Shown: piece by piece, positions 11,468 through 27,130 of the stretch
Numbering within the stretch: position 1 is the stretch's first letter
Layout: every line of letters starts with the position of its first letter
Origin: Candidatus Omnitrophota bacterium
Lineage (GTDB): Bacteria; Omnitrophota; Omnitrophia; Omnitrophales; Aquincolibacteriaceae
DNA: 64,000 nt
NCBI GenBank assembly: GCA_903856085.1
Contig: CAIOAT010000016.1
Span: 8,581 to 72,580, forward strand
Direction: 5' to 3'
Program-made: the position numbers and the translations under genes
Notes under the pieces: generated by a model
Databases searched by the model: none
Seen by the model: the letters and a program-made list of their open reading frames with translations, nothing else
Told to the model about the DNA's origin: nothing

Positions 11468-13030
11468 CTAAAGCGACGGGCCCGCGCCTTGCTTCAGATC
11501 GAGGGGTGCTCCAAAAACATCGGCGAACATGTCCCCTTTCCGTCGCAGGCTTTCCCGTTCAAGCGAAATATCCCCGATCTCTTTCGGCACCCAGATCGCA
11601 TAAGTGTCTTCCGAACGTTCCAGAGTAAACGACCGGATCTTCTGCTGGTGGCCGGTGTCCAAAGCGTCTGCAATGCGCAGGATGGAAGCAAGTTTTGAGA
11701 CGATTGCCCGGTCCGATTTCGCAAGAGACATGTAAGGTACGTGCGTTTCGCGCGGCGGCACACGGCGATGATACCGGACAACATTAGCGACAATATTCTT
11801 GTCGGTCCTCCTCAGCCCGAAGATCTCGGCGGCATCCACTAAATAATACGAATGCTTGTGGTGTCCCGAAGGAGAAACGTAGGTTCCAATATCATGTAAG
11901 ATACCGGAAACCTCGAGCAAAAGACGCTCGCGGGACCCCATGCCATGATCTCCCGCAAGCAGGTCATAAAGTTTCAATGAGAGTGAGGCCACGCAAACCG
12001 CATGCCCCTTGTCGTACATATATTTTGCCCCAAGGTGGTGGGCGGAATTAAGGACCTGCTTCGAGACGTCCGTTCTTCGGTAACCCGAAAAAAGCTGGGC
12101 CATTTCGAGCAAAAGACCGTCCCGAATACTTAATTTTGGGATAATGACCTCCTCCGCCTTGGTTTCATTTAAAAAATTCAAATAAAAAAGAAGCGCGGGG
12201 TAAAGGGACTCCGCATGCCCATAATCGAGAGAGTATTGCGCGGCAATCTCTTCGGGCGTCATTTTCCCCACCCGCCCCATAAAACTCACAAATTCTTTCT
12301 TTTCAAGAATGGTGAAACGGTCGAGAGTCTCCGGAAGAAGCTGCTGCGATACGAATCGCATATCTCCACCCAGAGCAACGAACGTATCGATCTGCTCCAT
12401 ACGAACTTCACGCGCCACGTTCTGTGCGATATCCCGGATACTCTTCTTCAGAACACGCTGTATGAGTCCCGCATCTTCTTTCCCGGCTACGGCCTGCTCG
12501 GGAAGCCTTACTGATCCTATCGGCAGGGTCCGCGTAACGCTCACCCGACCTTGATCCATGATGATCATTTCCGTACTGCCAGAGCCTACTTCGACGATCA
12601 GGCAATTCTTTTTTTCGAGATCGATCCTCCCCTCCAGCGCATGCTCGACCGCGATCAATTCGAGACGGTTTTCTTCCGGGCCCTCCAAGATCTCCACTTC
12701 GATGCCAGCGCGCACATAGATTTGATCGATGAAATTATCCCGATTCTGGGCCTCCCGGACAGCGCTCGTGGCGATCGCTTGGACTTTTTTGATTCCATAC
12801 GTATCGATCACAGACTTGAAGTCTCGGAGAATGTTCACACCCTGGCGCATGGAAGCACTGCTCAACCTGCCCGTTTTAAAAACATCTTTGCCGAAACGAA
12901 CCGGCTTTTGAAGCTGCTCCAAATAACGAATCTCGTTTTTGGCTCCAACCTCCGCAATCACCATGCGGATTGCAATGGTTCCGATGTCAATAACGGCGGC
13001 GATATGTTTTTGAATTTCTTGTTCAGGCAT
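11468..13030 (-). CDS. ppx: Exopolyphosphatase (Ppx/GppA family) with C-terminal HD domain
   Basis: ASKHA-fold motifs AAVIDIGTIAIRMVIAEV and VEVGSGSTEMI. The C-terminal HD region is ILHDIGTYVSPSGHHKHSYY. It lies 12 nt upstream of ppk1. Confidence 0.9.
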   Translation of the reverse strand: MPEQEIQKHIAAVIDIGTIAIRMVIAEVGAKNEIRYLEQLQKPVRFGKDVFKTGRLSSASMRQGVNILRDFKSVIDTYGIKKVQAIATSAVREAQNRDNFIDQIYVRAGIEVEILEGPEENRLELIAVEHALEGRIDLEKKNCLIVEVGSGSTEMIIMDQGRVSVTRTLPIGSVRLPEQAVAGKEDAGLIQRVLKKSIRDIAQNVAREVRMEQIDTFVALGGDMRFVSQQLLPETLDRFTILEKKEFVSFMGRVGKMTPEEIAAQYSLDYGHAESLYPALLFYLNFLNETKAEEVIIPKLSIRDGLLLEMAQLFSGYRRTDVSKQVLNSAHHLGAKYMYDKGHAVCVASLSLKLYDLLAGDHGMGSRERLLLEVSGILHDIGTYVSPSGHHKHSYYLVDAAEIFGLRRTDKNIVANVVRYHRRVPPRETHVPYMSLAKSDRAIVSKLASILRIADALDTGHQQKIRSFTLERSEDTYAIWVPKEIGDISLERESLRRKGDMFADVFGAPLDLKQGAGPSL

Positions 13031-13038
13031 GCTGTTCC

Positions 13039-14031
13039 CTACTTTTTGGCCGCTTTAAAAACTTCATGGGCCATTTTGGCGGCTCCTAAAATAACCGCAT
13101 TATCCTTCAGTTTGGACGGGACGATTTTCACCACTTTGGCGAGGGGCTTAAGCGCGTAAGCTTCCATCTCACGTCTGACCTCAGGAAGAATGATCTTTCC
13201 CATCGCCTCCATCATTCCTCCTCCCAAGAGGATCAATTCCGGATTCAAAATGTTCACCACATTCGCTAGCGCAACCCCGAGCCACCGGGAACGGCTCCGG
13301 ATCAGCTCCTCTAACGCGATATCCCCCGCTTTGATAGCGCGGGACAAAGCACCGCTGCGGATTTTTTTTACGTTATAACCGATCTCTTCGAGAAGATGCG
13401 GGCACTTCTGCCGCAGCAAGAGGAACCCCGCCTCCGATGCAATAGCATTCCTGCCGACCAAAGCTCCGACTTTTTGGCGCGACGTTTCAAAATCAGAAAA
13501 AGAAGGAAGTGACAGAAATGTCTGGCCGATCTCACCAGCTCCTCCAGAAGCGCCACGGTAAAGATGTCCGTTGATGATGAGCGCCCCGCCGATACCCGTT
13601 CCTAGGAAAACCCCCACGACTTCCCGATAACCCCGCGCTGCGCCGAATTGCTGTTCTCCGAAAAGCCCCGCATTGGCATCGTTTTCAATAAAGACCGGTG
13701 TTTTCAGCTTCGCTTTCAGTTTTTCAGCAAGTGAATAATTCTTAAAAAAAGATACGTTGGAGGAGACTTTGACGATCCCTTTATAGATATCAATGATTCC
13801 AGGACAACCCACACCGATGGTTACAAGATCACTCAGGTCCGACCCGGTTTCTTCCAGAACTTCCTCGATCCCGTCAATGAGCTTGTTGAAAAAGAACCTC
13901 TCGCCGCGATTACCGTCCATCTCAAGTTTGACGGTCTTTTTTAAACTAAATTTCCTGTCAAAAAGACCTATCAGAATCTTGGTCCCGCCCAGATCGATGC
14001 CAAGGATGAACTTCTTTTTCTTGCCCGCCAT
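13039..14031 (-). CDS. ROK-family sugar kinase lacking the zinc CxCGxxGC motif (candidate glucokinase, possibly polyphosphate-dependent)
   Basis: Motifs GIDLGGTKILIG, ENDANAGLFGE and GTGIGGALIING. The only cysteines are in GVGCPG and RQKCPH, so the usual ROK zinc motif is absent. SD GGGGAGAG precedes ATG 14031. The track start at 14061 falls inside the predicted -10. Confidence 0.75.
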   Translation of the reverse strand: MAGKKKKFILGIDLGGTKILIGLFDRKFSLKKTVKLEMDGNRGERFFFNKLIDGIEEVLEETGSDLSDLVTIGVGCPGIIDIYKGIVKVSSNVSFFKNYSLAEKLKAKLKTPVFIENDANAGLFGEQQFGAARGYREVVGVFLGTGIGGALIINGHLYRGASGGAGEIGQTFLSLPSFSDFETSRQKVGALVGRNAIASEAGFLLLRQKCPHLLEEIGYNVKKIRSGALSRAIKAGDIALEELIRSRSRWLGVALANVVNILNPELILLGGGMMEAMGKIILPEVRREMEAYALKPLAKVVKIVPSKLKDNAVILGAAKMAHEVFKAAKK

Positions 14032-14059
14032 AGACTCTCCCCTTTCAAAATTGATTTCC

Positions 14060-14103
14060 ATTATAATGGCTCAGGGAAGTTTTTATGTAAAGCATTTGTA
14101 AAG
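14060..14103 (-). promoter_or_regulatory. Pho-box-like repeat plus consensus -10 for the ROK-ppx-ppk1 operon
   Basis: Top strand has TGTAAAG (14086-14092) and TGTAAAG (14097-14103), exactly 11 bp apart. On the gene strand this reads CTTTACA-AATG-CTTTACA. TATAAT (14065-14060) lies 20 nt downstream, and ATG 14031 follows about 29 nt later. Confidence 0.6.
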
Positions 14104-14279
14104 TCTTGGTGGCTCTATCCATTCAGACCACCTAAAAAGCCCTTCCAGAAATTCCGTAGAGAAATCCACAGGCCCCTATCTTCACACAAAACACAGGGTA
14201 TTCCTCGCGATCTTTTAACGCAAACAAGCCATCACATAAACCTCTGTGCGAATGAACACGTTTTTCACAGGAACTGTTT

Positions 14280-17200
14280 TTATGCCGCTACTTTAACAGC
14301 CTTTGCATTTCTCCAGGAAGCAGCAAGGAACTCTGTGACAAGCATCAAGGCATCTTTCATGCCCCAAAGATCCCGTTTTCTTCCTAGCTCAAAAAGTTGC
14401 CGACTTGTGACAAGATACCAGAGAAGAGAAAAAAGAACCTCCGGGTCAGAGCTCTTCAACTCCTTATCGTAATAAACAAGATTCCCAACGCAACTCTTCA
14501 CCTTTTGGACTTCGCGGCGATCGATTCCGACATAAGCATAATCCAAGCGTTGATATTGAGGTCCGGTGACTAAGGGACGCAGGAATTTCAAAATGGAAGC
14601 ACTAATGCTATCAGATATCTCTACTAGCTGAAAATGTCCGGTAGGAAGCTCCATTTTCTTTATCTTTTGTTCGATTGCCTCTTTCCCGGGAAATCGACTC
14701 CTCTCGAACAGGATAATGACACGGAACGGCAGCCGCGAAAGCAGCAAAAGATGCTCATCGCGAATTCCGATCCTCGCGTCCAGGAAAAGGGTGTTCAAGG
14801 CATTGGCCCGCTGCGGAAGAGCGCGGAACATTCCCATTCCTTTTTGGAAGGCTAAAAAATCGTCCCCTGATAGCGCTAAAAGCTCCTTCAGATCCGGTCC
14901 TGTGCTTTCTGAAAGAAAACTCGCGTCACCCAAAAGAGATTTTAAGCGCGGTAAAAGTTTTACATCCTCCGGTCCTAGGATCCATTCCGTGATCTTGATG
15001 GCAACCAGAAGACGGACTTTCTCCGAAACAACCGGCGTCACGTCTTCTTGCAAGGAAATCTCACGCGTAACCTCTTTGGGATTGAGTTCTAACGCTGGGG
15101 GTTTTTCGGAAGTTCTGTCTTCTCTCAATTCGGAACGCAGCACCCCACCAGGGCCCACAGCAGCCAACGCGGTTGCAATCGCCGAAAAGTGCGTCGTTAG
15201 AATCTTGTAAGTACGCGGCGTAAAGACACCTCGTTTTTCACGCAACATCGTAGAAACATCCTCGGGGGAGAGGGCCACGATCTCAACGGCATCATCTCCC
15301 GGTCTAAATTCTTTCCAATTGAACTCTCCATTGAGCGAAAAATGAAACAACTTTACATCCTCTTTTCTTGTGGTGGGAACTTGCCTTCGCCCCTCATGAT
15401 GAACTTCATAGGAAAGAGGAGGGAGCTCCCGAACTGGTAATGAGGTTAAGGCCGCGGGAAGAGGGCGGCCATCACGGAGTTCTTCAAGGAACCCCCTCTG
15501 GATTGCGGCTTCCGGACTTTCTCCGGGCTCCAGATGCTCAAAAACGGGAAGATCCAATAGACCCGGATTACTGGAAGTTAAATTACTGCGCCGCTGAAAA
15601 ACAACTTTTCCATCCTTGGTCACAAATGCGGCAACCTTTAAGGCCGCCAGACCTCTTGCATGCCCCTGTTTTCTTGGCAAGTGTACGATTTGATCGCCTC
15701 GCGTATCACGAAACATAAAAATCTGCCGATCCGCGAGCAATGAACCTTCCCCCTCCAATCGCTCGACGGCTGTACGGTTCGCCAGCTCCGGAAAAGATAC
15801 CTCGAGGCGCTTCATCCGCTCCAAAATCCCAGCCCGATTGCTCCCAGATATAAAAAAATGATCGGAAGGCGCCGGAACAAAAGCCTCCACTTCAGGAGGC
15901 TTCTGCGCAGTCGCACGAAAGGTCTCCCACAGTTTTTTCCCCATCGTGCTATAAATCTTCGCATATGGATTGGCGGCATCTTGTCCATCCGAAAACGTTT
16001 TTTGATTATGAGCGAGCCTCTGAAGATTAGGCGACACCGAAGTATTCCCTCGAAGCTGAAGATCGAACTCAGCAACCACTCTCGCAAAATCCTCTACGAG
16101 ATCCACCACAAAAGCTCCATATTTTGAGATCAAGCTTTCTGTTTTTTTACGAAATACGTCTATCAATCCTTCCATCTGTTGACGTTCCTCCTCCGTCCTT
16201 GAAACAAGAGCCATGGGCCCTTTGGGAACTGCAAATTGAGGCGTGATCGCATTATCCAATGTCAGACCGGTCCCGAACAAATGCCCATACTGACCTAAGG
16301 CACCTTTCAATTCTTCTGGGCGACGAACCACATGCTCCACATCATGCCTCGGAGAACCGTTACGCCCCAACAACACGGGATGCCGATCTGTTTCAACTTC
16401 TTCCAGAGAAGCAAGCCGTGCGTCAATAACGATCTGACTTCCCTGGTTGTTATAGCTGATCACATTCGAGCTCAGGTCGCCTCCAGGGAAAATGATCTCT
16501 CCATGCTTCACGCCTTGCTCCCTGAAGTCGCCTGCCATCCGCAAAGCTTCGGCAAGATTCATCTTAAAGACCGCCATAGCAACCGCCAAAGGAATACCTG
16601 GCTGCGGGAACCAATAGATCTGTAATTTTTTACCCAACGACTCCGCCAGATCGCGAGCGGCAAAAAATTGTCCGGCATTCCCCGGGAAAAGGCCGTCGGA
16701 TTCCGCTACTTTGAAACGGAAATGTTTCAGAACATGATCCTGCGCTACCATTGTTTCAAAAAAATTCCGATTCTCTCCGTTTTTAGGCGGGAGCAAAATG
16801 ATCACCTCGACGTCCTCCCTCAAATTTTCATCCAAAAGCGCCCGGCTCATCTTTGCCATCATAAGATTTTCTCCGGCGACATCGTCCATCTGGGAAAGGG
16901 CAACTTCCCTCCTGGGTTCTGAGGCCGGTCGTGACATTTCATATTGTTTGTTTCTCATACGTTTCGCGGACGCCCGTAAGGATTGGATCTCACGTTTGAA
17001 AGTCCCGTAACCATTTCCACTAAGATTCCTCAACATCGGCCCCACATGCCTCCAAACTGAGAAAAGGGTCCACAAAACACCAAAGATTGTCGGAACTGTA
17101 ATCAACAACTGGTGCAAACCAAATATAAGGTTCAGGATGGGTACAATAAAAAGAATCGCCACTCCGGCCACCGCCAATGCCCGGCCAAGCCATCGTCCAT

Positions 17201-20200
17201 AAAAATGGTCTAGCTTGTTTCCTTCCAGCTCATCAAGTTCGGCTGTGGGATGGAACGCTTTATGGAGTCCTGCTTTTGCCACGCGCATGGCCTCACGTTC
17301 ATTTTCAAATCCGGATATTCCCAGTTTTTGCATATTGGCCGTCACGCGTCTAAAGCTGTTCAGCGTCACCCACCGATTGATCGCCACCATCAGCGTCACC
17401 CCGAGGCAAAGACGCCATATGGAAAAGGTCCAGAGAACCTTCCGATTGTGCAGGATCTTCTGCCAATCCGAGAACTTCATTCCGTCTTGAAGCAATAACT
17501 TGGGAGGATAAAGATCGATTACCTGGGAAAGGGCAATGAGCCGATTCGACAGATTGAATCCTTCATTAAAATTCTCTGCAAAATCGGCTGATTTTTCAAG
17601 AAACCTCAAAACCTCCTGCTCTTCGATATCATTCCCAGTCCCCCGAGTCGCCTGAAATTGACGGGAAGCCGTCTGAGCGGTCAGGATCGATAAGCGGGCC
17701 AAAATCCCACGGATCTTGACCAGAGAATGCGTGTCGGGTTTCCACATTTCAGAAAGGTCCTCAAAATGTTCCCGGGAAAATCTAAGCAGCGGATGCTGCG
17801 CCAACTCGCTGGCCTTTGTGGTGATCATATCCCTTTCGCCCGAACCCAAGTGCTCATTTTCTAAAAGAAGTCGAGTCCAAGCCTGAAGCGGCTCAACGAT
17901 TTCCTGGAACACCCGCATATCCACGTCATCACCGCGGACCGCTCTTTGTTTATTAGCGTTTCTTTTTAAACGCATCCCGATTTTTCCCGCCTCGTCAAAG
18001 AGAATCTCTAGAGATTCCACGGAATCTCTCCGGAAAAACTTCTCATGCCCTCTTTTTTTCATCAATGCGAAAAAAAGTTTTGGAAGATTCCAGACAAGTA
18101 GAACCAAAGCAAGAACCGGGAAAAAACGCCAACTGATGTAACGAGCCCCAAAAGGGTTCATGAAATACCTCAAGAGAGCCGCTCGCTGCGTGGGATTTTG
18201 TTCTTCCCTTACTAGCTCCAAAAGTCCCAGAACCCCGATCTTTTGTCCGGGATGCATTTGAAATTGTTCCTGAACGGATGCGGGAATCGAATCTATTAAG
18301 CGAAGAGGTGGCGACTTTCTTTCGACAAGATCGCCTTTCTTCTTCGCCCAGGCTGAGGCTTTGGCGGACCCATCGAAAGCAATATCCGCAACACTACCCT
18401 CGCCAAGAATTCCCTCCGTATCGTCGCTGCGGATCACAACTCCCTCCCGTTCACCCAAAAGCCATTGGCTGCTGTTCGCGAGAGGGATCACTGCATACAC
18501 TGTCCCCATCAAAACGCCGCGGGATGTCACGACAGAGACTTTATCTCCTGTTTTAACGCTTCCCGTTTCGACAGGGAGCAGAAAAGGATCCTCATTGGAA
18601 AGACGGCCTGTCCATTCTGCAGAACGGGGGTCAACGCTCGTTCCCAAAAAAACCTCTTTGTTTACAATGCCGGCTTTCGTCACCTGCCCCGCCGCCAACG
18701 TTTGTCCATCTAAAGCAGTAACGCCCAGAACACGACCCCCCACGGGAGCTTTGAGCAGGATGGGCAATCCGCTCCGCTGGATCCCTGCAACGGCCCGCTG
18801 AGCTCTTTTTTCATAGTCCTGGAGAGAGCTTTCGGGAAGAGTCCTAAAGTCCTGGTTCGCCTTACGCATTGTCCGTGCAAGAGTCTCAAGCTGTCTGGCA
18901 ATCTTGAGCTGCCCACCTTGCCCCACAGGGATCCATTCCCCCAAGGAGTCCCCGGCCTTAACCGTTTGTCCATCCCGAACTGTAGCTCGAAAAATTCCGG
19001 CGTCGATCCCGGGAACGGGAGGAACACCGACCGGGATGAACTGTGAAGATGGAATAGTGGTGTGAAATCCGGCATTGTGATGCAATCCTAACGATTCGAC
19101 GCTCGGAGTATTATCTTTTATCAGCTTAATATCATATGCACAACTCGCCCCATGGGCCGGAAGAGATGTGGAAGATGGGAAGCTGAAATGAACTGTTAAA
19201 ATAAATTCGCCGTCCACTCCTTTCGCAAGGTCAAAATGACTTGCTTCCCAATCCAACACATTCACGGAATGCCCATTGACGGAAAGTTCGATATCATCGG
19301 CTCCGGAATATCCCGGAGGAAGAGCAATCTTTATGACCCCCTCATCCAGAGGAACGATCCCCACGGCATAACTACCAGCCGTTGCCGGCCCCTGATCCAG
19401 TGTTTGAACGATTGCCGGGCGGGGCGAAACCAGGATGTCGGCTTCTGCTTCCGCCTTCAGTTGAGCGAGCTCCAGTTGATGTTCGATCCTCTCAAATTGA
19501 TATTGAAATATTGTGTCCCGGTCGAGAGTCCCCGCATCTTTTTCTCCTCTGGCCACCAACCCGCCAAGTTCTCGGATCCTATCTTCCAGAAATTGAGTCC
19601 TGTTATCGCGTTCTGTATCCTCTCCTCTCGCAAGCAGGTCGCCTTTTTTGACAACATCTCCAGGTTTAACGGCATAAGTCATCTTATCTGCCGTCAATGG
19701 GGCTTTGAGCATGACCGCACCGGGAGGATTCACGATTGCTTGTCCTTTGCCTGTATACAAGACAGTTGCTGTGTTTGCGACAGAGTGTTGCTCTTCAAAC
19801 ACTGGTTTGACCTCTGTCCTATCAGAAACAAGGGAGGCTGATGCGACGGAAGACGGCTCTTTCACGGAAGCCTCCTCGTTCGTGACATTCAAAGCATTGG
19901 CAGTCCCGGCTGGGCTTTGAAATGGTATCCCGGAAAAATCTTTCTTCGTGAGTTTCTCCTTTGCGCCTGACGAAGTCATTACCTGTTCTCCTTGAGAAAC
20001 CGCATCGGCCAAGGTTTCGCGCCCATCCACGTTGCCTACACCAAGAATTTCGATGACGGAACTATCCGGAGAGACCGATTGGGGGTTGGATGTCGCATGA
20101 TCGGCTTCAGAAATTTTTGGGCTCTCCGCGGTGGTTGGAAGTGCGGAAGATGGCCCATCCGCAGAAACCCTGTCGGAGAGGACCGATGATGCCGCTGCAA

Positions 20201-23200
20201 CCGGAGAAATATACGCTCTCGATACTTTTGAAGAATGCCCGTTCTCTGGAACGGAAGACGCTCCCTCCAAAGAAACAATTCGGAAATAGCCTTGGTGTTG
20301 GGGCACCACCACGAATGTTGCTTCATAAGGATTCTTGGTTTCCTTGCGTAATGTCCAGATCCCCTTTCTTTCCGTTTTAAGAAATTTCGCACCCTGCAGG
20401 TCTTTTCCTAAAAAAGTCACTGTAGAGGAGGGAACGCCCCGCTGCATTAAAAGCTGCGCTCCTTTCATGTTTTCGGTGATCATTTGTTTGCCCACCAATT
20501 TCTGAATCGCCAATTCATTGGTTTGAGCCAAGGCTGACGAAGCCATGAGAAAAGCCCCCAGCAAAAATCCTCCCATTATTTTTAACAAGAAATGGATTCC
20601 CAGCTTTCGGCGAACTTCTGAACGCTGTGGTGCAATTCCTAGCCCGAAGAAATTTGCCCCGGTGATAACATTCAAAGGTTCTACCCACGTTTCGGATGCG
20701 CGCAGATCTGTAAAACCCTTCGTAGTCCATACTTTTTCGGATACAACTTGAGCATTCAACCAATCTCTTAGTTCGTCCGGGATAGTTTTTGATCCCACCA
20801 GTCTCCACGAGAAAACCTTCCGGGAAAAACCTAAGACGATTTGGATATCAGCAATGGGTGGGGCGTTTTGATTCGTCTTCACGTGAAATAGGGTGCCATT
20901 TATGCCAAGCTTGTGCCCTCGTCTTAAAAATCCCTGCAATTCTGGAGACATCTCCAAAACAATTTTGCCAAGATCAACCCTGTAAACCAACCCCGCAACC
21001 TTTGTCTCTGGCCCAAAAGCTTCAATGTGCTTCGCCGAAAGAGAGGCTGCGCTCCGCATTTCGAATCTTGTCACACCCTTCTTGAAAGACCGATAAGCCT
21101 GCATCAAAAGGCCTGCGGCGATTGCTGACGCTTCCTCTTTTTCTTCAGCCCTTAGCTTTGATTCCCGCGTGTTCAATTCGATATATTCACGAATTCGAAC
21201 GTTAAGTCCAGATAGCGCAGAGGAGGTAAAATTCATCTCGAAAGATTCGATCGCTTTAGCGGCTAGCGCGTAAGGAACCAAGGTATCCGGCAGATCCTTG
21301 GCCTGTCCAAGATCGTTTCTAACCGATTCCAAATCGGCAAAAGTAACCCCGCCATTCCGTTCTTTTCCATAAATGAGTCCCCACGCAAGCGCCCAAGCCG
21401 CCATCGCCTGCTCAGCAGGGATTCGAATGGCCCCCTTAGCCGACGTCATAAGCTCGAGTGACACGGCGAGCATAGACGTCGGGATCATTGCATCCGCATC
21501 ATCCAACAACCCGCCATCGATCAAGCTCACGATCGCATGATGGGCAAGAGCACGCACGGTTCCGCAATCACTGAGATTAAGTTGCAAAAGCACTTCTGCA
21601 CGCTTCAAAGCTTCCCCAAGGATTTCCTTATTCATAACGGGATCAAGATAATTTGAACGCGCCTCCGAACGAACGACGATTTGCGCTTTCACCGATCCCG
21701 GTTCAGAACGGCCAGACGCTGCCTTTTCGCGAGAAAACCGATGGCGAGAGAGTTTCGAATCAACATTGGAACGCCGAAAGGCCTCTGAAATCAAAACACC
21801 CAGATGAATTTTTTTAATCATTTTCAAAGCCACCCAGGAAAAGGCAATATCCCCCGTAAGGATGACGAGCTCTGAAAGGTAGGGGCTTACAAGCTTGTTG
21901 ATAATCATCGCCATCCCCTCAACAGGAAGGAACCATAACAACAATTGACGGCGACTCTCCTTAAAAGATCCGTGGCTTTTGAAGAGTCGTAGAGATTCGA
22001 AGTTATTTTCAGGATAGATGTTTGTATAATATTTCCAGAGCATAAGTGGATAAAAAATATAAAAATTGATCAAAGCATCCCCCATGGTTTTAAGGACGAT
22101 CTCAGACCACACATCAAGCCATGGGGAAAGATTTAATTTCCCGATTAAGGCATAATAAACGGTAAAAAATAAAGCGAACAAGCTAGCTGGAGCTGCGGCT
22201 TTCCTGGAGTCTTTCCAGAATGTTTTCATGAACACTCCTCGAAAGCCATGGCGAAGATAATCCTGCATCCAGACACAATATGCCGCAATCATGCCAGCCC
22301 AGGCGATACTCACGCCAAGTGAAAGAACTAAAGAATGCCATGACGCGTTCTGAAGATGCGGTTTAAGGATAAACGCCAGCCCCAGAGTGGCGGCTGAAAA
22401 TCCAGCTGTCCCCATCGCGGCAGGTGTGATTTGTTTGAGATGAGCGAGTTTGGATCTCTGGTTCCTTATTTCGGACCGGCCGAGCAAGACTTGGGGCAAT
22501 CCCTTTACGTCCCGAGTAAGCACTTGCAGCTCTTTGGCTGCCAATGTGGCCGCCTTGCGAGAGAATAGGATTTGGATCTGATTACTGGGGATCTTTAAAG
22601 CGTCCACAATAAGCCGGTCCTCGGTAACGCCAGCCCCACGAGCCTTTTTCAGATAGCCATCAATCCTTGCATTCTCGGCCTCCGCAATCCGTATCGTCTC
22701 ATTTTCAGCCACAATCGTTTGAAGAAGACCTGCAATCTTCTCTTCGATTTTGTCATGAACTGTCAAGAGCTCGGCTTCCGCTACACGAGTCTCCAGAAGA
22801 GCTATTTCCCGATTGGCTCGCTCAGCGCCCCCGAAAGTCACCTTCCCGCCGAGACCTACGGCCTGCTGATCCTCCGTGCGTTGTTTTGCCTCCGGAACAA
22901 CTCTTGTATTGAACACATCCGGAACTTTTGTCCCATAGGAATCGAAATAGTTGAATCCCTTAAGACCGATCGAGTAACCGTTCTCTCTTGCAGCCAATCT
23001 CGCGGCCGTTGCGGCAGTCAAACGGGCCTCATAAGCCAACGCAAGTTCACGGTTTGCCGGAAGTTTGACGCCTTCTTTGGAGGTTGCTTTAAGACCAAGC
23101 GCTATTCGTTGATCGGTTGTGATCGTCCACCCTTCCGGAAATCGCACATAATTCAAGGCATTGGAAAAAGTCGCACATCCTAAGATGTTTTGGCCATAGA

Positions 23201-25985
23201 GTGTCCTCAAAGGCAATGCCGCCTTCTCCAACTTGGAACGATGCTCATTAAGACGTAAAAGCCACTCCGCCTTAAGATCTCCGATCGCCTGGCGTTTTGC
23301 GGCTGTTGACTGCGAGTTCTTGCCGGCGACTTCGCTAGCATGATCGATCGCCTCAAGGGCTGCTTCAATAATTGGGCCTTGTGATTCAAGCGTTTTCATT
23401 TCGTAGGCGGCCCCCAAGAAATCGAGGTATCGTTCACCCGCCACCTGCTGAAGTTCCAGTCCGGCTGTTTCAACCATCTGCTGCGCCAGTTCTCGCGCCA
23501 GGATATCCTGACCTTTCCAGTATTTGCTAATCTCCGCTGCAAGGGATAACACCGCACTGGCCGCCGAATCCAAACCGATCCCCGTTAATTGTATCTGCCC
23601 AAGATTCGGCAAAGTTCCTTCGACGCCAAGCCCAAGCACCGGTTTCCCATCTGCGAGACCTAGGGTAGGCATGAGAGAAATGCTCCCGGACAAACTTCTT
23701 TTTTTGGATTCCCGGATACTCACCTCAAAACGGTGTCTCAGAATGACCGGATCGCGAGTAACCAATGCTTCAGCCAGGGAGCTTTCATTCACCAGAATCG
23801 GACCGGACAGAGAAATTTCTTTTTGCGGCAAAATGTACTGACGATCCGATTCGATCTGTTGTCTCGCATGGTCACGGCCCAAATTCGCACAACCGCTGAG
23901 AATGCCTGCCATTACAACCCAAAGAACCGCCTTCATGAACGAGGAGGGCTTCCATCGGATCTCGGCGCGCGAGAACAAATTGTTTTTTCCCTGGATCGCG
24001 TCGGGGAGCAATGCCAAAAGTCCCTTCTCCGCCCCGGGAGATAGCAAGGGAGTCGGATCTAAAATGAATCCGACATGGGTATTCATTCTCTGAAATAAGA
24101 AGCTCAAAACGTGTTGCTCTAATGCTTGACGAACTTCATGCATCCCTTTGTAAAATTTCTCCGGAATGGCTGCGAATATCCGTTGTCCCTCCCCATCCAT
24201 GAATGCCGACTTTCCCGTCTGGGATCTTTGGGCCAACACGCTGTGTTCTCCCTCGGAAACATCGACCACCGCCACTTGATGTTTTTTAAGTGATCTTTCG
24301 ATCTGTCCCATAGCCGCTTCAAAATGGTCAAATGCTGGCTCTCCGACCATCTGCCTCGCCTCGGAGTGTTCCATCACGGGGAGCTGCGCGGGAGCGATCG
24401 TAGACGTCCCGGGATACCGCCCCATCAAGAGATCACTATAGGGAAGCATCTTTTCTTCCGGGTTGAAATACGGCGTCACAAGATTGAACGGTATCCCAAG
24501 CGCTTCTGTTCGCCTGAGTAGTCCTTCCTTATGGTAGCCTCCGGCAACAATCACAATGTTTCTGGTTTTATTCCCCTGTCCATTCAAAAAAAGAGGATCT
24601 TGAATCCTTTTTTTGATGATATCAAAAAAAACATCTTCGCGAGCTTCTGCCTGAGCATAAAAATCCAAAACAAGGTCGACAAGGGGCGCTATCGTCTCTT
24701 CGTGAGGGAGTGATGGCTCCCGGAGAAAGCGCTTGTAAGCCTGCACCCAGTTCTTGCGAAAATGGTCGCGAAACCGGGCCACGCACTCCCTTTTAAGTTC
24801 AAGGGAAAGCGCCTGTTTCAGGAGGAAAAAATCCTGGTAAAAGGCAAGCCATCGTCCAGCTACCGGATCACTGCGACGGAGGGTCTCATACAACCTGTTC
24901 TCGAGCGTCTGGATTTCGTCAAAAAGTCTTTCGGCTATAAGTTCGCTTTCAAATACCTGCAAAGCAAGAAACTTCCGAATCATCGGATAACGTCCCCAAG
25001 AAAGCTCCCGTGCCAAAAATTTCTCCATGATGCGTTCCGCCATAACGCGAGAAGTCACGCTTCCAGTCTGAAGTGCGCGTGACCGGAAAGTTGCATTCGA
25101 AGCGGCGCTCTCGAGCCATTCGATTTCCGATCGAGAATCCGGACCAAGCACCCGTTTAAGCTGTCCGATTTCTTTCGTGACTGCGCTACAATCCGGTGCT
25201 GTTTCCGTATTCAAAACACGGAAAAACCGAACTAGCTGAGGCCAATCTTTTTGCGTCGAAAGATCCCGCCAATCGATTCCCAAATGCTTCGAAGAGCAAT
25301 CAAAAAGAAACTTCATGTACTCGCTTAAATCATTTTGGCTTTCCTGATGAGATCTCCACATTTTCAAGAAATGGAATACCTGCGGATCAATAACTTTTTT
25401 GATATCTTGAATTAATGATGCCTCCACCTGATCAAGAAACTCTCGAATCTCACCATGGTTGCGCATAACGGCCCGGTAAGTTTCGAGGTTCTTTCGGTAA
25501 AGCCCTGCCTCCTCAATCCCGTACACGCGTATGCCGGAGTGATTTGCAAAGAATTGAGTGGCGCCATTAACGAATCCCGCTTGGAAAAGGCTTCCCAAAA
25601 AGATCCTGTTCTTTTCATCATCCTGGAAAGGCTTCAGAGCCTCGGGAGACAGAGGGCCTGATGCACCTTCAATAAAAAGCATATCGAGTTTCTTTTGCTC
25701 TAGAAGGGACTCTAGTATCTTCGTAATATTCTTTTGAGCCTCTTCCGAAGCATGCGCATCTTGGATATGGTAGAAACTGAAAGGCACGGACCTTTCCGGG
25801 GGCGGGGACTTTTCAAGGCTTCCTACTTTGGGGGATAAAAAAACGGGGGCTTCGGCAACAGCGCCGGTATAAAAATATGCCGTCACAGCACGCACTTCTT
25901 GGGAAGGAAAAATGGTTTCAAAAACAAAAATGGCCACAACAGCAAATGCTACGATCCGGATCAATTTGCTTTTCTTGGCTTTCAT
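14280..25985 (-). CDS. Giant multi-module envelope protein or polyprotein (3,901 aa from ATG 25985; the frame is open from TTG 26015 = 3,911 aa)
   Basis: A single uninterrupted frame of 11.7 kb. The N-terminus is MKAKKSKLIRIVAFAVVAIFVFETIFPSQEVRA (signal anchor). The modules are listed as separate features below. Confidence 0.8.
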   Translation of the reverse strand: MKAKKSKLIRIVAFAVVAIFVFETIFPSQEVRAVTAYFYTGAVAEAPVFLSPKVGSLEKSPPPERSVPFSFYHIQDAHASEEAQKNITKILESLLEQKKLDMLFIEGASGPLSPEALKPFQDDEKNRIFLGSLFQAGFVNGATQFFANHSGIRVYGIEEAGLYRKNLETYRAVMRNHGEIREFLDQVEASLIQDIKKVIDPQVFHFLKMWRSHQESQNDLSEYMKFLFDCSSKHLGIDWRDLSTQKDWPQLVRFFRVLNTETAPDCSAVTKEIGQLKRVLGPDSRSEIEWLESAASNATFRSRALQTGSVTSRVMAERIMEKFLARELSWGRYPMIRKFLALQVFESELIAERLFDEIQTLENRLYETLRRSDPVAGRWLAFYQDFFLLKQALSLELKRECVARFRDHFRKNWVQAYKRFLREPSLPHEETIAPLVDLVLDFYAQAEAREDVFFDIIKKRIQDPLFLNGQGNKTRNIVIVAGGYHKEGLLRRTEALGIPFNLVTPYFNPEEKMLPYSDLLMGRYPGTSTIAPAQLPVMEHSEARQMVGEPAFDHFEAAMGQIERSLKKHQVAVVDVSEGEHSVLAQRSQTGKSAFMDGEGQRIFAAIPEKFYKGMHEVRQALEQHVLSFLFQRMNTHVGFILDPTPLLSPGAEKGLLALLPDAIQGKNNLFSRAEIRWKPSSFMKAVLWVVMAGILSGCANLGRDHARQQIESDRQYILPQKEISLSGPILVNESSLAEALVTRDPVILRHRFEVSIRESKKRSLSGSISLMPTLGLADGKPVLGLGVEGTLPNLGQIQLTGIGLDSAASAVLSLAAEISKYWKGQDILARELAQQMVETAGLELQQVAGERYLDFLGAAYEMKTLESQGPIIEAALEAIDHASEVAGKNSQSTAAKRQAIGDLKAEWLLRLNEHRSKLEKAALPLRTLYGQNILGCATFSNALNYVRFPEGWTITTDQRIALGLKATSKEGVKLPANRELALAYEARLTAATAARLAARENGYSIGLKGFNYFDSYGTKVPDVFNTRVVPEAKQRTEDQQAVGLGGKVTFGGAERANREIALLETRVAEAELLTVHDKIEEKIAGLLQTIVAENETIRIAEAENARIDGYLKKARGAGVTEDRLIVDALKIPSNQIQILFSRKAATLAAKELQVLTRDVKGLPQVLLGRSEIRNQRSKLAHLKQITPAAMGTAGFSAATLGLAFILKPHLQNASWHSLVLSLGVSIAWAGMIAAYCVWMQDYLRHGFRGVFMKTFWKDSRKAAAPASLFALFFTVYYALIGKLNLSPWLDVWSEIVLKTMGDALINFYIFYPLMLWKYYTNIYPENNFESLRLFKSHGSFKESRRQLLLWFLPVEGMAMIINKLVSPYLSELVILTGDIAFSWVALKMIKKIHLGVLISEAFRRSNVDSKLSRHRFSREKAASGRSEPGSVKAQIVVRSEARSNYLDPVMNKEILGEALKRAEVLLQLNLSDCGTVRALAHHAIVSLIDGGLLDDADAMIPTSMLAVSLELMTSAKGAIRIPAEQAMAAWALAWGLIYGKERNGGVTFADLESVRNDLGQAKDLPDTLVPYALAAKAIESFEMNFTSSALSGLNVRIREYIELNTRESKLRAEEKEEASAIAAGLLMQAYRSFKKGVTRFEMRSAASLSAKHIEAFGPETKVAGLVYRVDLGKIVLEMSPELQGFLRRGHKLGINGTLFHVKTNQNAPPIADIQIVLGFSRKVFSWRLVGSKTIPDELRDWLNAQVVSEKVWTTKGFTDLRASETWVEPLNVITGANFFGLGIAPQRSEVRRKLGIHFLLKIMGGFLLGAFLMASSALAQTNELAIQKLVGKQMITENMKGAQLLMQRGVPSSTVTFLGKDLQGAKFLKTERKGIWTLRKETKNPYEATFVVVPQHQGYFRIVSLEGASSVPENGHSSKVSRAYISPVAAASSVLSDRVSADGPSSALPTTAESPKISEADHATSNPQSVSPDSSVIEILGVGNVDGRETLADAVSQGEQVMTSSGAKEKLTKKDFSGIPFQSPAGTANALNVTNEEASVKEPSSVASASLVSDRTEVKPVFEEQHSVANTATVLYTGKGQAIVNPPGAVMLKAPLTADKMTYAVKPGDVVKKGDLLARGEDTERDNRTQFLEDRIRELGGLVARGEKDAGTLDRDTIFQYQFERIEHQLELAQLKAEAEADILVSPRPAIVQTLDQGPATAGSYAVGIVPLDEGVIKIALPPGYSGADDIELSVNGHSVNVLDWEASHFDLAKGVDGEFILTVHFSFPSSTSLPAHGASCAYDIKLIKDNTPSVESLGLHHNAGFHTTIPSSQFIPVGVPPVPGIDAGIFRATVRDGQTVKAGDSLGEWIPVGQGGQLKIARQLETLARTMRKANQDFRTLPESSLQDYEKRAQRAVAGIQRSGLPILLKAPVGGRVLGVTALDGQTLAAGQVTKAGIVNKEVFLGTSVDPRSAEWTGRLSNEDPFLLPVETGSVKTGDKVSVVTSRGVLMGTVYAVIPLANSSQWLLGEREGVVIRSDDTEGILGEGSVADIAFDGSAKASAWAKKKGDLVERKSPPLRLIDSIPASVQEQFQMHPGQKIGVLGLLELVREEQNPTQRAALLRYFMNPFGARYISWRFFPVLALVLLVWNLPKLFFALMKKRGHEKFFRRDSVESLEILFDEAGKIGMRLKRNANKQRAVRGDDVDMRVFQEIVEPLQAWTRLLLENEHLGSGERDMITTKASELAQHPLLRFSREHFEDLSEMWKPDTHSLVKIRGILARLSILTAQTASRQFQATRGTGNDIEEQEVLRFLEKSADFAENFNEGFNLSNRLIALSQVIDLYPPKLLLQDGMKFSDWQKILHNRKVLWTFSIWRLCLGVTLMVAINRWVTLNSFRRVTANMQKLGISGFENEREAMRVAKAGLHKAFHPTAELDELEGNKLDHFYGRWLGRALAVAGVAILFIVPILNLIFGLHQLLITVPTIFGVLWTLFSVWRHVGPMLRNLSGNGYGTFKREIQSLRASAKRMRNKQYEMSRPASEPRREVALSQMDDVAGENLMMAKMSRALLDENLREDVEVIILLPPKNGENRNFFETMVAQDHVLKHFRFKVAESDGLFPGNAGQFFAARDLAESLGKKLQIYWFPQPGIPLAVAMAVFKMNLAEALRMAGDFREQGVKHGEIIFPGGDLSSNVISYNNQGSQIVIDARLASLEEVETDRHPVLLGRNGSPRHDVEHVVRRPEELKGALGQYGHLFGTGLTLDNAITPQFAVPKGPMALVSRTEEERQQMEGLIDVFRKKTESLISKYGAFVVDLVEDFARVVAEFDLQLRGNTSVSPNLQRLAHNQKTFSDGQDAANPYAKIYSTMGKKLWETFRATAQKPPEVEAFVPAPSDHFFISGSNRAGILERMKRLEVSFPELANRTAVERLEGEGSLLADRQIFMFRDTRGDQIVHLPRKQGHARGLAALKVAAFVTKDGKVVFQRRSNLTSSNPGLLDLPVFEHLEPGESPEAAIQRGFLEELRDGRPLPAALTSLPVRELPPLSYEVHHEGRRQVPTTRKEDVKLFHFSLNGEFNWKEFRPGDDAVEIVALSPEDVSTMLREKRGVFTPRTYKILTTHFSAIATALAAVGPGGVLRSELREDRTSEKPPALELNPKEVTREISLQEDVTPVVSEKVRLLVAIKITEWILGPEDVKLLPRLKSLLGDASFLSESTGPDLKELLALSGDDFLAFQKGMGMFRALPQRANALNTLFLDARIGIRDEHLLLLSRLPFRVIILFERSRFPGKEAIEQKIKKMELPTGHFQLVEISDSISASILKFLRPLVTGPQYQRLDYAYVGIDRREVQKVKSCVGNLVYYDKELKSSDPEVLFSLLWYLVTSRQLFELGRKRDLWGMKDALMLVTEFLAASWRNAKAVKVAA
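15156..15665 (-). other. Giant ORF Nudix-hydrolase module (aa ~3451-3620) with a variant Nudix box
   Basis: LKVAAFVTKDGKVVFQRR...LDLPVFEHLEPGESPEAAIQRGFLEELR fits GX5EX7REUXEEXGU, except that RE is replaced by RG. The box is at nt 15477-15554. Confidence 0.6.
18336..19763 (-). other. Giant ORF module E (aa ~2085-2560): HlyD/membrane-fusion-protein-like periplasmic adaptor segments
   Basis: Lipoyl-like hairpin motifs YAVKPGDVVKKGDLLARGE and ATVRDGQTVKAGDSLGEW. Coiled-coil stretch FERIEHQLELAQLKAEAEA. Beta-barrel-like segments LKAPVGGRVLGVTALDGQTLAAGQ and VKTGDKVSVVTSRGVLMGTVYAVIP. Confidence 0.5.
19791..20213 (-). other. Ser/Pro/Ala-rich low-complexity linker (aa ~1935-2075)
   Basis: Sequence SPVAAASSVLSDRVSADGPSSALPTTAESPKISEADHATSNPQSVSPDSS...EPSSVASASLVS. 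Confidence 0.6.
20526..20609 (-). other. Internal Sec-type signal peptide (aa 1803-1830: RKLGIHFLLKIMGGFLLGAFLMASSALA|QT)
   Basis: A basic n-region, a hydrophobic core and an A-L-A cleavage motif, starting immediately after RSEVR. Confidence 0.55.
21672..22463 (-). other. Giant ORF module C (aa 1185-1448): roughly six-helix integral membrane module, unknown family
   Basis: Hydrophobic stretches occur near aa 1201-1217, 1226-1249, 1275-1293, 1305-1327, 1356-1376 and 1381-1400. The module is bounded by RSEIR and RSEAR. Confidence 0.5.
22479..23888 (-). other. Giant ORF module B (aa 710-1179): TolC/OEP-like outer-membrane factor
   Basis: About 470 aa, the typical OMF size, with a two-fold internal organisation. 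N-terminal block SLAEALVTRDPVILRHRFEVSIRE...MPTLGL; second half LALAYEARLTAATAARLAARENGYSIGLKG. Long Ala/Glu/Leu-rich helices are present, and a lipobox precedes it as in NodT-type OMFs. Confidence 0.5.
23889..23936 (-). other. Internal lipoprotein-type signal peptide with lipobox (aa 694-709: MKAVLWVVMAGILSG|C)
   Basis: A hydrophobic core is followed by I-L-S-G-C, which matches the L-[AS]-[GA]-C lipobox. The Cys709 codon (tgt) is at 23889-23891. The signal starts 7 residues after RAEIR. Confidence 0.6.
24456..25784 (-). other. Giant ORF module A (aa ~78-520): candidate Tiki/TraB/ChaN-superfamily fold
   Basis: FYHIQDAHASEEAQKNITKILESLLEQKKLDMLFIEGASG resembles the GExH...H...E pattern. The late block RNIVIVAGGYHKEGLLRRTEALGIPF resembles the G..H block of ChaN/TraB proteins. 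This is pattern memory only. Confidence 0.35.
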
Positions 25986-26096
25986 TTTTTGCCCTTTTCC
26001 AATGGTGGAAGACAACTCTTTAAGGTTTTATAAAAGTTTTTCCTTCTGATCTCACGGAAAGCTTAACTTCGTTGTGAAAACTCTGCATCACATCCC

Positions 26097-26114
26097 GGTA
26101 AAGATAATGTAAAA
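26097..26114 (-). promoter_or_regulatory. Pho-box-like repeat 85-130 nt upstream of the giant ORF start
   Basis: Top strand has GGTAAAG (26097-26103) and TGTAAAA (26108-26114), 11 bp apart. On the gene strand this reads TTTTACA-TTAT-CTTTACC. No convincing -10 was found at the expected distance. Confidence 0.4.
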
Positions 26115-26283
26115 ACAATATTTCCGGGGGGTTAGGACCTTTTATCGTTTGATAGCTTTTGCTATCCCCCGGGAAATCCTTAACGACGAAATGCTCGAAC
26201 AGGAATCTGGGGCGCAAAGTCTGAATCTCTCTATTTGCTCTTCACTGTGCTTTTGAAATGCTCGCAGCAAGGCACATCTCTCC

Positions 26284-26337
26284 ATTTCAAAAATTTCTTG
26301 GAAACCTTCCTTTCAGAAGTGTAAAGAGTTGGTAAAG
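26284..26337 (-). promoter_or_regulatory. Pho-box-like repeat plus candidate -10 in the giant-ORF/phoB divergent region
   Basis: Top strand has TGTAAAG (26320-26326) and GGTAAAG (26331-26337), 11 bp apart. A weaker in-phase site, GTTTCCA, is at 26305-26299. A 9-nt gap follows, then TGAAAT (26289-26284) on the minus strand. The repeat is also about 100 nt upstream of phoB. Confidence 0.45.
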
Positions 26338-26390
26338 CTTCTATCTGTTACGCTGAAACAGGTTATGTCCGATTTGAAACTCCTCCGATT

Positions 26391-26419
26391 TTTCAACCTG
26401 TAACGAACTGTGGTACAAT
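26391..26419 (+). promoter_or_regulatory. Candidate sigma70-type promoter of phoB
   Basis: TTTCAA (26391-26396), a 17-nt spacer, then TACAAT (26414-26419). SD GGAG is at 26431-26434 and ATG at 26440. Confidence 0.4.
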
Positions 26420-26439
26420 GAACTAACTTTGGAGTTCAT

Positions 26440-27129
26440 ATGGCAAGCGAAACGATTCTCCTCATTGAAGACGAAAAGAACATCCTTGAGCTTGTGAAAT
26501 ACAACCTCGAGCAGGAGGGTTTTCGCGTCCTCACCGCGACCAAAGGCAACGCAGGTCTTGAGACAGCGCTTAAAGAAAAACCAGCCCTTGTGCTCCTCGA
26601 CCTCATGCTCCCGGAAATCAATGGCCTCGAGATTTGCAAAACCCTAAAACAGACCGAAAAAACACGCAGGATCCCTATCATCATGCTTACGGCCAAAGGC
26701 ACCGAGTCCGATAAAGTCGTCGGCCTCGAACTCGGCGCCGATGATTACATCACCAAACCTTTCAGCCCCCGGGAACTCGTAGCTCGCATCAAAGCCGTCC
26801 TTAGACGCTCTCAGGAAAAAGCCCCGGAAGAGATCTTGAGATCCGGAACGATCGAGCTTGACGTGACAAAGCATGAGCTGCGATTAAAAGGAAAGCCCGC
26901 CGAAATTACCGCCAAAGAATTCGAACTCTTGCGCGTACTCATGAGTTCCAAGGAACGGGTCCTGACGCGCGAGGTTCTCTTATCAAAAGTTTGGGGTTAT
27001 GAGAATTCTGTGAATATCGAAACGCGGACTGTCGACATGCACGTCGGACAGCTACGAAAAAAACTTGGCAAAGAAGCGGATCGGATCGTCACGGTTAAAA
27101 GCGTCGGCTACCGTTTCGACGGAGAATAA
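26440..27129 (+). CDS. phoB: OmpR/PhoB-family response regulator (phosphate regulon regulator)
   Basis: Receiver domain (ILLIEDEKNILELV, LVLLDLMLPE, MLTAKG) plus a winged-helix C-terminus (TRTVDMHVGQLRKKL, VKSVGYRF). It is adjacent to a PhoR-like kinase and to the pst/ppk genes. Confidence 0.8.
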   Translation: MASETILLIEDEKNILELVKYNLEQEGFRVLTATKGNAGLETALKEKPALVLLDLMLPEINGLEICKTLKQTEKTRRIPIIMLTAKGTESDKVVGLELGADDYITKPFSPRELVARIKAVLRRSQEKAPEEILRSGTIELDVTKHELRLKGKPAEITAKEFELLRVLMSSKERVLTREVLLSKVWGYENSVNIETRTVDMHVGQLRKKLGKEADRIVTVKSVGYRFDGE

Positions 27130-27130
27130 G

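Follow-up and report, generated by a model that had tools for sequence, protein, structure and literature searches.

Does a bacterial open reading frame (ORF) of almost four thousand codons encode one enormous protein, or several proteins that are made as a single chain and separated from each other? The question is raised by a stretch of 64,000 nucleotides (nt) from a Candidatus Omnitrophota bacterium (contig CAIOAT010000016.1, positions 8,581 to 72,580), here called the window, whose minus strand carries a giant ORF in which a pentapeptide close to R-S-E-[IVAL]-R recurs. On balance we favour the second answer: giant ORFs of this kind would be chromosomal polyproteins, the pentapeptide would be their processing signal, and a TIKI-like domain at the N-terminus would be the leading protease candidate. 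In these ORFs the N-terminal TIKI/TraB-like domain precedes a changing series of protein-sized modules that are unrelated to each other and of exported, lipoprotein, membrane or cytosolic type. In the mechanism that we propose, a sequence-specific endopeptidase would recognise the motif and cut the chain into independent proteins, and the favoured candidate for this enzyme would be the N-terminal domain, which would cut its own chain or other chains.

The initial annotation had reported four exact and two near copies of the pentapeptide in the giant ORF, taking them as module borders and candidate processing sites. When checked on the DNA, all six stand where they had been reported and with the codons quoted (Table 1). 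By composition of the giant ORF the motif should be as rare as had been roughly estimated: RSE[IVAL]R is expected 0.028 times and seen 4 times, and the loose pattern is expected 0.087 times and seen 6 times. It was said to occur in no other credible protein of the window, which agrees with a six-frame scan giving 9 loose matches, 6 of them in the giant ORF and the other 3 in stop-to-stop frames of 35-47 codons that are not genes. Within this single protein, and counting the search over patterns, the signal is only suggestive: a de novo pattern scan of the giant ORF alone gives 2e-6 for RSE.R, and its top pattern is the unrelated VK.GD with 2e-7.

The family to which the protein belongs was therefore considered as a whole. 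Searching with the complete protein gives 77 hits, all of them of 2,170-6,482 amino acids (aa) and with very diverse enzyme domains, from sources named as Omnitrophota, Elusimicrobia, Endomicrobiaceae or Auribacterota. In these homologs RSE[IVALM]R is seen 147 times against 2.3 expected, a count that includes the 4 sites of the window protein (P0001) itself. The wider pattern R[SAP]ExR is seen 471 times in 141 further cluster representatives (26.9 expected) and 751 times in 190 proteins of at least 1000 aa that share the N-terminal domain, a set from which the query cluster was left out (47.4 expected). Up to 23 sites are found in one protein, and across the family the first of them lies at a median position of aa 607. 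The consensus in the 190-protein set is R-[S>A>P]-E-x-R, with mostly L, V, A, M or I at position 4. The original formula, [RH]-[SA]-E-[IVAL]-R, thus described a real motif too narrowly, as the family version has S, A or P at position 2 and, in some proteins, also S, T or Q at position 4. Both near copies of the window ORF are genuine, HSEAR being aligned with RPEAR or RSEAR in orthologs and RAEIR matching the family consensus.

Around the motif no conservation is seen except for small residues at positions -1 and -2; there is a modest excess of Pro and Ser on the upstream side and of Glu on the downstream side, and aromatic residues are under-represented. The two hydrophobic residues that had been noticed before most copies in the window are no feature of the family, in which A, S, P and G are preferred at -1 and -2. 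The reversed motif, used as control, gives 172 matches and is apparently enriched because both patterns are matched by variants whose fourth residue is S, A or P; without such two-way variants (for instance RSESR, RAEAR, RSEAR) the number drops to about 31, against about 47 expected. Synonymous codon changes are found at each of the five positions, CGN/AGR and TCN/AGC exchanges among them, which argues for selection on the peptide, as had been proposed from the window alone, and not for a DNA repeat; a DNA-level repeat or recombination scar was rejected on this ground. Internal translation starts after the motifs were also rejected, Met not being enriched at +1 to +10. Ordinary genes contain no motif, either in the window or in the flanks of two further loci of the family, L002 and L003. 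Concerning avoidance of the motif, the 34,000 aa of ordinary proteins that were scanned have 0 true hits where about 2 would be expected, an underpowered sample to which a metagenome scan added only 18 loci. In the literature the string RSELR/RSEVR was met only in PL7 alginate lyases, in which it is a conserved region unrelated to the motif discussed here.

The position of the copies is as informative as their number. In orthologs with 23-63% identity the motif is retained at the corresponding borders, an outcome on which the initial annotation had staked its reading, and comparison of orthologs reveals that modules are gained and lost as cassettes exactly at the motifs. Homology blocks shared with P0003, P0006 and P0007 begin at RAEIR (683-687) or at most 4 residues before it, those shared with P0002 and P0003 end exactly at the last residue of RSEIR (1180-1184), and the border of the sixth copy is marked by RSELR, RSEVR or RAEMR in P0002, P0003, P0005 and P0006. 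For modules 3 and 6, the alignments reach the last residue of both motif-delimited segments in several orthologs. Module 4 is a cassette that is present in P0005, P0007 and P0008 and was not detected in P0002-P0004, and for module 2 BLAST gave no counterpart among the eight closest homologs. One copy of the motif lies in the linker after every module but the last, and the AlphaFold2 (AF2) model has low confidence around HSEAR and in the 40 residues following RSELR.

The segments between motifs have the dimensions and the content of complete proteins. In 28 proteins there are 257 segments, with a median of 292 aa (interquartile range 182-506 aa), which is a normal bacterial protein size. The Pfam domains of four homologs lie wholly within single segments; these are DUF218, TrmB-like methyltransferase, pyridine-nucleotide oxidoreductase, HPr, response-regulator receiver, starch synthase, glycogen phosphorylase and metallophosphoesterase. 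DUF218, the methyltransferase, the oxidoreductase, HPr, starch synthase and glycogen phosphorylase each occupy a segment of their own, and HPr starts 2-3 residues past RSEVR. The chains join unrelated proteins that are known to stand alone elsewhere, with a conserved short motif at their junctions. The motif is real, is selected at the protein level, sits at module borders and is conserved across orthologs and across the family.

What comes directly after the motif bears on whether the chain is cut. Signal peptides and lipoboxes were identified by eye. Module 3 opens, immediately past RAEIR, with a lipoprotein signal, MKAVLWVVMAGILSG-C709 (MKAVLWVVMAGILSGC, with Cys709, nt 23889-23936), and its lipobox, ILSGC, is conserved in P0005 and P0008. 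Module 6 opens, immediately past RSEVR, with a Sec-type signal or anchor (nt 20520-20609; RKLGIHFLLKIMGGFLLGAFLMASSALA-QT) that recurs in orthologs. Both had been pointed out as plausible N-termini, and both are real. Since these modules start with their own signals after a motif, the topology would make sense only if the chain is cut: without cutting, the module 3 lipoprotein signal would cross the membrane in reverse orientation, leaving the TolC-like domain in the cytoplasm. Cleavage at the motifs would release about seven products from the window ORF, namely the TIKI-like domain, a small soluble protein, a TolC-like lipoprotein, a polytopic membrane protein, a soluble protein, an HlyD-like/NUDIX membrane protein of 1,824 aa and a protein of 280 aa with a Rossmann-like core.

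The variant of the motif is specific to the protein or to the genome. RSELR is used in P0119 (13 copies), RSESR in P0016 (12), RAEVR in P0021 (11), RSEQR in P0174 (10), RSEAR in P0052 (9) and RPEVR in P0014 (5), and the chance of two sites being identical is 0.315 within one protein against 0.089 when sites are pooled. In some members an altogether different pentapeptide is found at similar positions: [AG]-x-S-L-G replaces the motif in P0023, P0027 and P0031, G-[AS]-R-L-A recurs in P0059 and A-A-R-L-S in P0038. These alternatives have one copy shortly after the N-terminal domain; in P0027 and P0059 the pentapeptide is also seen 3-8 residues before the C-terminus. Among 129 long members, 70 belong to the RxExR class, 12 to the xxSLG class and 2 to the ARL class, the other 45 being without a simple motif. 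The nearest genomic loci come from Omnitrophota metagenome-assembled genomes (MAGs), with 30-33% identity in the N-terminal domain and with the RxExR motif, and in Elusimicrobiota loci, including Endomicrobium, the domain is often multicopy per genome and mostly without a simple motif. Locus L002 contains two tandem giants of 6,262 and 8,946 aa (10001-28789 and 28894-38789, about 100 nt apart) with 13 and 8 motif sites, which are RAEVR in all but three. In our opinion, the variants favoured by each protein, the RAEVR shared at L002 and the swaps between lineages point to an enzyme specificity that drifts, and not to a structural linker or a ribosomal signal. Tandem giants of the family are also seen at L061, L062 and L064. 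At L062 two ORFs with an N-domain start and a Cys-poor ORF of 2,143 aa lie within 21 kb, and the Elusimicrobia MAG ND5_Bin_57 has at least 5 family loci.

The only region common to all hits is formed by the first ~525 residues. In a search of 1.84 billion cluster representatives this domain gives 5,780 clusters with E<=1e-3 and 2,495 with E<=1e-10, and it is N-terminal in the best 150 of those clusters, in proteins of up to 7,700 aa. Of 173 members, at least 125 begin with a Sec-type signal peptide, in which an n-region rich in K/R is followed by a hydrophobic stretch of about 15-19 residues and an AxA-like site. No match to Pfam or NCBIfam was obtained with five of these N-terminal domains, even at E<=10. 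The predicted structure has an alpha/beta core, in which helices flank a parallel beta-sheet at the centre, and its fold matches are 2rad_A (erythromycin-esterase-like Bcr135, 8.8), 8bqs_DQ (TraB family protein, 8.7), 5t09_A (HopBA1, 8.5), 2g5g_X (ChaN, 8.3), 6xcq_A (EreC, 7.8) and 5w6l_A (RRSP, 7.5).

This superfamily includes sequence-specific endopeptidases, Tiki for Wnt and RRSP for Ras, and the TIKI catalytic motif consists of two His and two Glu residues (H85 and E113 in Bcr135; E3900, H3902, E3930 and H4030 in RRSP) (PMC6254334). With numbering from Met11 of the ORF, H78, E106, G156, R449, G482, G483 and H485 are invariant in 129 sequences, and D76, conserved in at least 90%, takes the place of the first Glu; in this numbering D76, H78, E106, R449 and H485 correspond to Asp86, His88, Glu116, Arg459 and His495 of the ORF (Table 1). 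The pattern reads D76-x-H78 … E106 … H485, and its His-to-Glu spacing of 28 residues is that of Bcr135 (H85/E113) and RRSP (H3902/E3930). Judged by predicted fold and residue pattern, the N-terminal domain is a divergent TIKI/TraB-like domain that keeps candidate residues of catalytic type. It would resemble the TIKI/TraB/PrgY/GumN/erythromycin-esterase/ChaN group, which includes sequence-specific endopeptidases, in the sequence pattern of these residues, and departs from it in lacking a Pfam or PDB sequence match, in a helical insert of ~300 residues between the core halves and in being fused to thousands of residues of cargo. We know of no member of the superfamily that processes a polyprotein.

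That the chain is cut at the motif seems to us quite likely. As for the enzyme, the TIKI-like domain is a candidate because it is the only part common to all members, is always N-terminal and has invariant catalytic-type residues in the predicted fold; that it does the cutting is a tentative proposal, possible and yet short of probable. AF2 does not dock the first motif into this domain, a result that bears on neither a cut nor an uncut model. Intein- or hedgehog-type self-cleavage was rejected, as position +1 varies among S, A, E, T and N and offers no constant nucleophile, and the giants are nearly Cys-free. A conserved C-terminal protease module was also discarded: the segment after the last motif, often of 256-310 aa, belongs to unrelated sequence clusters without profile-profile similarity, and the model of module 7 has a generic Rossmann-like or HAD-like core and not a protease fold. 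No conserved neighbouring protease gene was found in the window, L002 or L003.

Several observations weigh against the N-terminal domain as the reader of the motif, or against processing as such. With regard to the fold, searches of PDB sequences with a single sequence and with a profile gave nothing relevant, and Foldseek against PDB gave no significant hit, though the same proteins rank first. Short members (P0220-P0222, L013, L018, L028 and L037), of about 700-1,350 aa and formed by the domain and one extension, have at most one stray R[SAP]ExR and no recurrent motif, so the domain is not restricted to punctuated giants; and the 45 of 129 long members without detectable punctuation are mostly from Elusimicrobiota. 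No conserved column of the domain was found in 129 sequences that separates the RxExR from the xxSLG class. At L002 the domains of the two giants are 26% identical and come from different sub-lineages, whose other members use RSELR, RSEMR or RSESR; one variant is shared despite this divergence, and thus specificity goes with the genome. The cargo of the family includes cytosolic-type proteins (sigma-70, radical SAM with CxxxCxxC, HPr, enzyme I, PGK, PGI), and roughly half of the giants lack transmembrane segments beyond the N-terminal domain. With such cargo the cut seems to be required in the cytoplasm, yet the domain, with its Sec signal, looks exported. Finally, cleavage at the motif has so far been deduced from sequence, and no product has been observed.

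Some of these points are better explained if the motif is cut by a cytoplasmic protease that acts in trans and is encoded elsewhere, the TIKI-like domain being an obligatory first cargo that is exported and has another role. This is a serious rival. The variant tracks the genome and not the lineage of the domain, no specificity-determining column separates the motif classes, a Sec signal coexists with cytosolic-type cargo and N-domain proteins without motif exist, all of which it would accommodate. We nevertheless regard it as rather unlikely: it leaves unexplained why every motif-bearing giant starts with this domain and why the catalytic-type residues are invariant, the gene calls of the window, L002 and L003 have neither a protease gene adjoining the giant nor a shared neighbour, and the avoidance in ordinary proteins that it predicts is not shown by the underpowered sample mentioned above. 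It is less credible still, in our opinion, that the chain remains uncut as a giant multi-enzyme scaffold, with the motif as a linker element such as a docking site for the N-terminal domain, a chaperone or a partner. Lipoprotein and Sec signals right after motifs make no sense in such a protein, its modules are unrelated whole proteins shuffled as cassettes, and wholesale swaps of the motif (RSExR, AxSLG, GARLA) fit a docking site worse than a drifting protease specificity. Besides, S, A or P at position 2 excludes a Ser modification site, which was rejected since this residue can be Ala or Pro. The scaffold has on its side that no product has been seen and that a soluble megaprotein is topologically possible for the half of the giants that have no internal membrane segment.

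Topology would be solved as well by separation on the ribosome, in which the nascent motif would release the upstream module while translation continues, 2A-like and without protease. Each module could then use its own signal peptide, the exported N-terminal domain being released first, and the three invariant residues (R, E, R) all carry a charge, a property also met in some arrest peptides. We give this explanation very little credence, because the motif has only five residues, and the site logo consists only of R-[SAP]-E-x-R with no conserved flank or upstream context and no match to the 2A consensus D(V/I)ExNPGP. Moreover, motif swaps and variant drift are unlikely for a signal that is read by a conserved peptidyl-transferase centre or exit tunnel, and we know of no bacterial precedent for ribosomal separation of such kind. 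Chance or composition, a DNA repeat, and a mis-assembled or mis-called ORF are already refuted. The significance of the motif in a single protein is indeed matched by VK.GD, which would suit chance, yet the motif is replicated in hundreds of independent proteins and the synonymous variation of its codons disposes of the repeat; as to assembly, the identical product (P0001, 3901 aa) is recorded on 18 contigs and the frame stays open across more than 3,000 codons in the orthologs at 23-63% identity.

Returning to processing at the motif as the preferred reading, we lean slightly towards its broadest form, in which many ordinary proteins of Omnitrophota and their relatives, whole envelope machines and metabolic enzymes among them, are made as polyproteins and cut into up to about 25 exported, membrane-bound or cytosolic products by a dedicated endopeptidase whose specificity drifts between genomes (RSExR, RAEVR, AxSLG, GARLA). 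The composition of the giants is of interest here. The window ORF has 10 Cys in 3,911 aa (0.26%) against 1.05% in 31 other genes of the window; the giants of L002 (10001-38789) have 2 in 9,560 aa against 0.88% in nearby genes, and the giant of L003 (10001-26311) has 1 in 5,436 aa against 1.08%. The median content of 155 giants is 0.08%, and by class it is 0.043% for RxExR, 0.029% for xxSLG and 0.19% for members with no motif; P0119 has zero Cys in 4,363 aa. The frequencies of Trp, His and Met are normal. Functional cysteines are retained, such as the lipobox Cys709, which is one of only 10 in the window ORF, and those of the radical-SAM CxxxCxxC in P0036. Exclusion of Cys would suit exported proteins or a thiol-sensitive processing step, and under the broad polyprotein reading it would hint at processing with unusual chemistry or in an unusual compartment.

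Polyproteins with an embedded site-specific protease are well known in viruses, as in the case of picornavirus 3C, potyvirus NIa and flavivirus NS3. The giant ORFs are like them in that one ORF would yield several unrelated mature proteins, separated by a short, lineage-variable junction motif, with a candidate protease in the same chain. They differ in forming a chromosomal bacterial family with housekeeping enzymes, envelope proteins and regulators as cargo, and in a candidate protease that is of TIKI type instead of chymotrypsin-like and bears a secretion signal. Cassettes flanked by recognition repeats that a protease reads also occur in multi-core precursors of ribosomally synthesized and post-translationally modified peptides (cyanobactin PatE) and in plastid-targeted polyproteins of Euglena and dinoflagellates; in those cases a cassette is either a peptide only a few residues long or one of several copies of the same protein, whereas here the cassettes are different whole proteins of about 300 aa.

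MARTX toxins, in which several unrelated modules of a giant bacterial protein are autoprocessed and one effector, RRSP, is a TIKI-family endopeptidase (PMC6254334), are a looser parallel in design. Their cysteine protease domain cuts after Leu inside the host cell (PMC6254334), and they have glycine-rich repeats and type I secretion, unlike the giant ORFs, whose cargo includes the envelope and metabolic proteins of the cell itself. None of the MARTX features (C80, RtxA repeats, type I signal) was found in Pfam and NCBIfam scans of the whole window ORF. Closer in taxonomy are the Archaeovorins (bioRxiv 10.1101/2023.11.21.568195) and the huge proteins of Elusimicrobiota and Omnitrophica (PMC11573180), reported in surveys of proteins of >30,000 aa or >5,000 aa that raise the question of cleavage, identify no cleavage points and propose C39 or S8 peptidase domains as processing enzymes. 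They come from the same phyla and share cargo such as NUDIX, radical SAM, HATPase_c and Lysine_decarbox with our family, but the surveys name neither a motif nor a TIKI-like domain; Archaeovorins are defined by a length above 30,000 aa and a C39 or S8 peptidase close to the N-terminus, and the window protein, of 3,901 aa, has no C39 or S8 match in the Pfam scan. We found no description in the literature of the motif, of the N-terminal domain in these phyla or of such bacterial polyproteins. If cleavage is confirmed, this would be the first chromosomal bacterial case of its kind known to us.

The features of the window ORF are collected in Table 1.

Table 1. Coordinates, in the window, of the giant ORF, its N-terminal domain, the motif copies and the modules.
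Feature	Position (nt)	Strand	Description
Giant ORF	14280..26015	-	3911 codons counted from TTG (ORF list and translation)
N-terminal Sec-type signal peptide or anchor	25887..25985	-	MKAKKSKLIR, ~19 hydrophobic residues, SQEVRA
Conserved N-terminal domain, ORF aa ~60-535	24411..25838	-	TIKI/TraB/erythromycin-esterase-like (predicted fold), helical insert of ~300 aa
HIQDAH, ORF aa 83-88	25752..25769	-	Nearly invariant Asp86, invariant His88
FIEGASG	25656-25676	-	Invariant Glu116, 28 residues past His88
Invariant Arg459	24624-24650	-	
VAGGYHKEG, ORF aa 490-498	24522..24548	-	Invariant G-G-x-His495
Motif copy 1, HSEAR, aa 550-554	24354..24368	-	Closes the N-terminal module
Module 2, aa 555-682	23970..24353	-	Small, soluble, without Pfam match
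Motif copy 2, RAEIR, aa 683-687	23955..23969	-	
Module 3, aa 688-1179	22479..23954	-	Lipoprotein signal and TolC-like outer-membrane efflux region
Motif copy 3, RSEIR, aa 1180-1184	22464..22478	-	
Module 4, aa 1185-1448	21672..22463	-	Polytopic membrane protein, four hydrophobic segments, the first at the module start
Motif copy 4, RSEAR, aa 1449-1453	21657..21671	-	
Module 5, aa 1454-1797	20625..21656	-	Soluble, without Pfam match, only in the window protein among close homologs
Motif copy 5, RSEVR, aa 1798-1802	20610..20624	-	
Module 6, aa 1803-3626	15138..20609	-	Sec-type signal/anchor, VKxGD hairpins, three further hydrophobic segments, large C-terminal region with NUDIX
Motif copy 6, RSELR, aa 3627-3631	15123..15137	-	
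Module 7, aa 3632-3911	14283..15122	-	First ~40 residues predicted disordered; generic Rossmann-like core

The ORF list places the start at the TTG at 26015. The likely start is instead the ATG at 25985-25983, which has a purine-rich AAGGG about 7 nt upstream and gives the 3901 aa of P0001. The c-region of the signal peptide (25887-25985), PSQEVRA-VT, is motif-like (S-Q/E-V-R) and is also an AxA-like signal-peptidase site. Scanning the whole ORF with Pfam and NCBIfam yields NUDIX, a weak OEP, a weak Biotin_lipoyl_2, one sub-threshold isopentenyl-diphosphate isomerase match and nothing else. The OEP match (PF02321, E=5e-4) falls in module 3, whose orthologous segments align end to end. NUDIX (PF00293, E=6e-6, nt 15225-15635) belongs to module 6, as does a weak PF13533 match; the orthologous segments of this module, of 1911-2164 aa, are likewise unbroken. 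VKxGD occurs four times in it (aa 2116, 2122, 2352 and 2487; window 18954-19694, minus strand, for aa 2108-2354, and aa 2487), in putative hairpins that resemble the lipoyl-like hairpins of HlyD-type periplasmic adaptors. Module 7 is conserved in P0002, P0003, P0005, P0006, P0008 and P0009. Taken together, this cargo weakly suggests parts of an envelope-spanning export system with accessory proteins. The homologous giant P0005 is annotated as histidine kinase, owing to its HATPase_c domain. Downstream of the giant ORF (9386-14061, minus strand) lie genes for a ROK-family kinase, a Ppx/GppA phosphatase and a polyphosphate kinase; upstream and divergent (26440-28903, plus strand) are an OmpR-type response regulator and a PAS/HAMP histidine kinase.

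For the open question of giant proteins, the motif gives candidate cleavage sites at the level of single residues in many proteins, and the shared N-terminal domain adds a candidate enzyme. Two features pose questions of their own, namely that the first domain of chains with cytosolic-type cargo bears a secretion signal and that cysteine is almost wholly excluded. If the polyprotein reading is true, annotation would shift, since one hypothetical giant would become up to about 25 proteins to be modelled and analysed separately, and orthogonal pairs of protease and site may become available for biotechnology. Polyprotein expression, a hallmark of viruses, would then also be a chromosomal strategy in bacteria, by which these organisms would achieve co-expression at the level of the protein, a strategy so far known from viruses.

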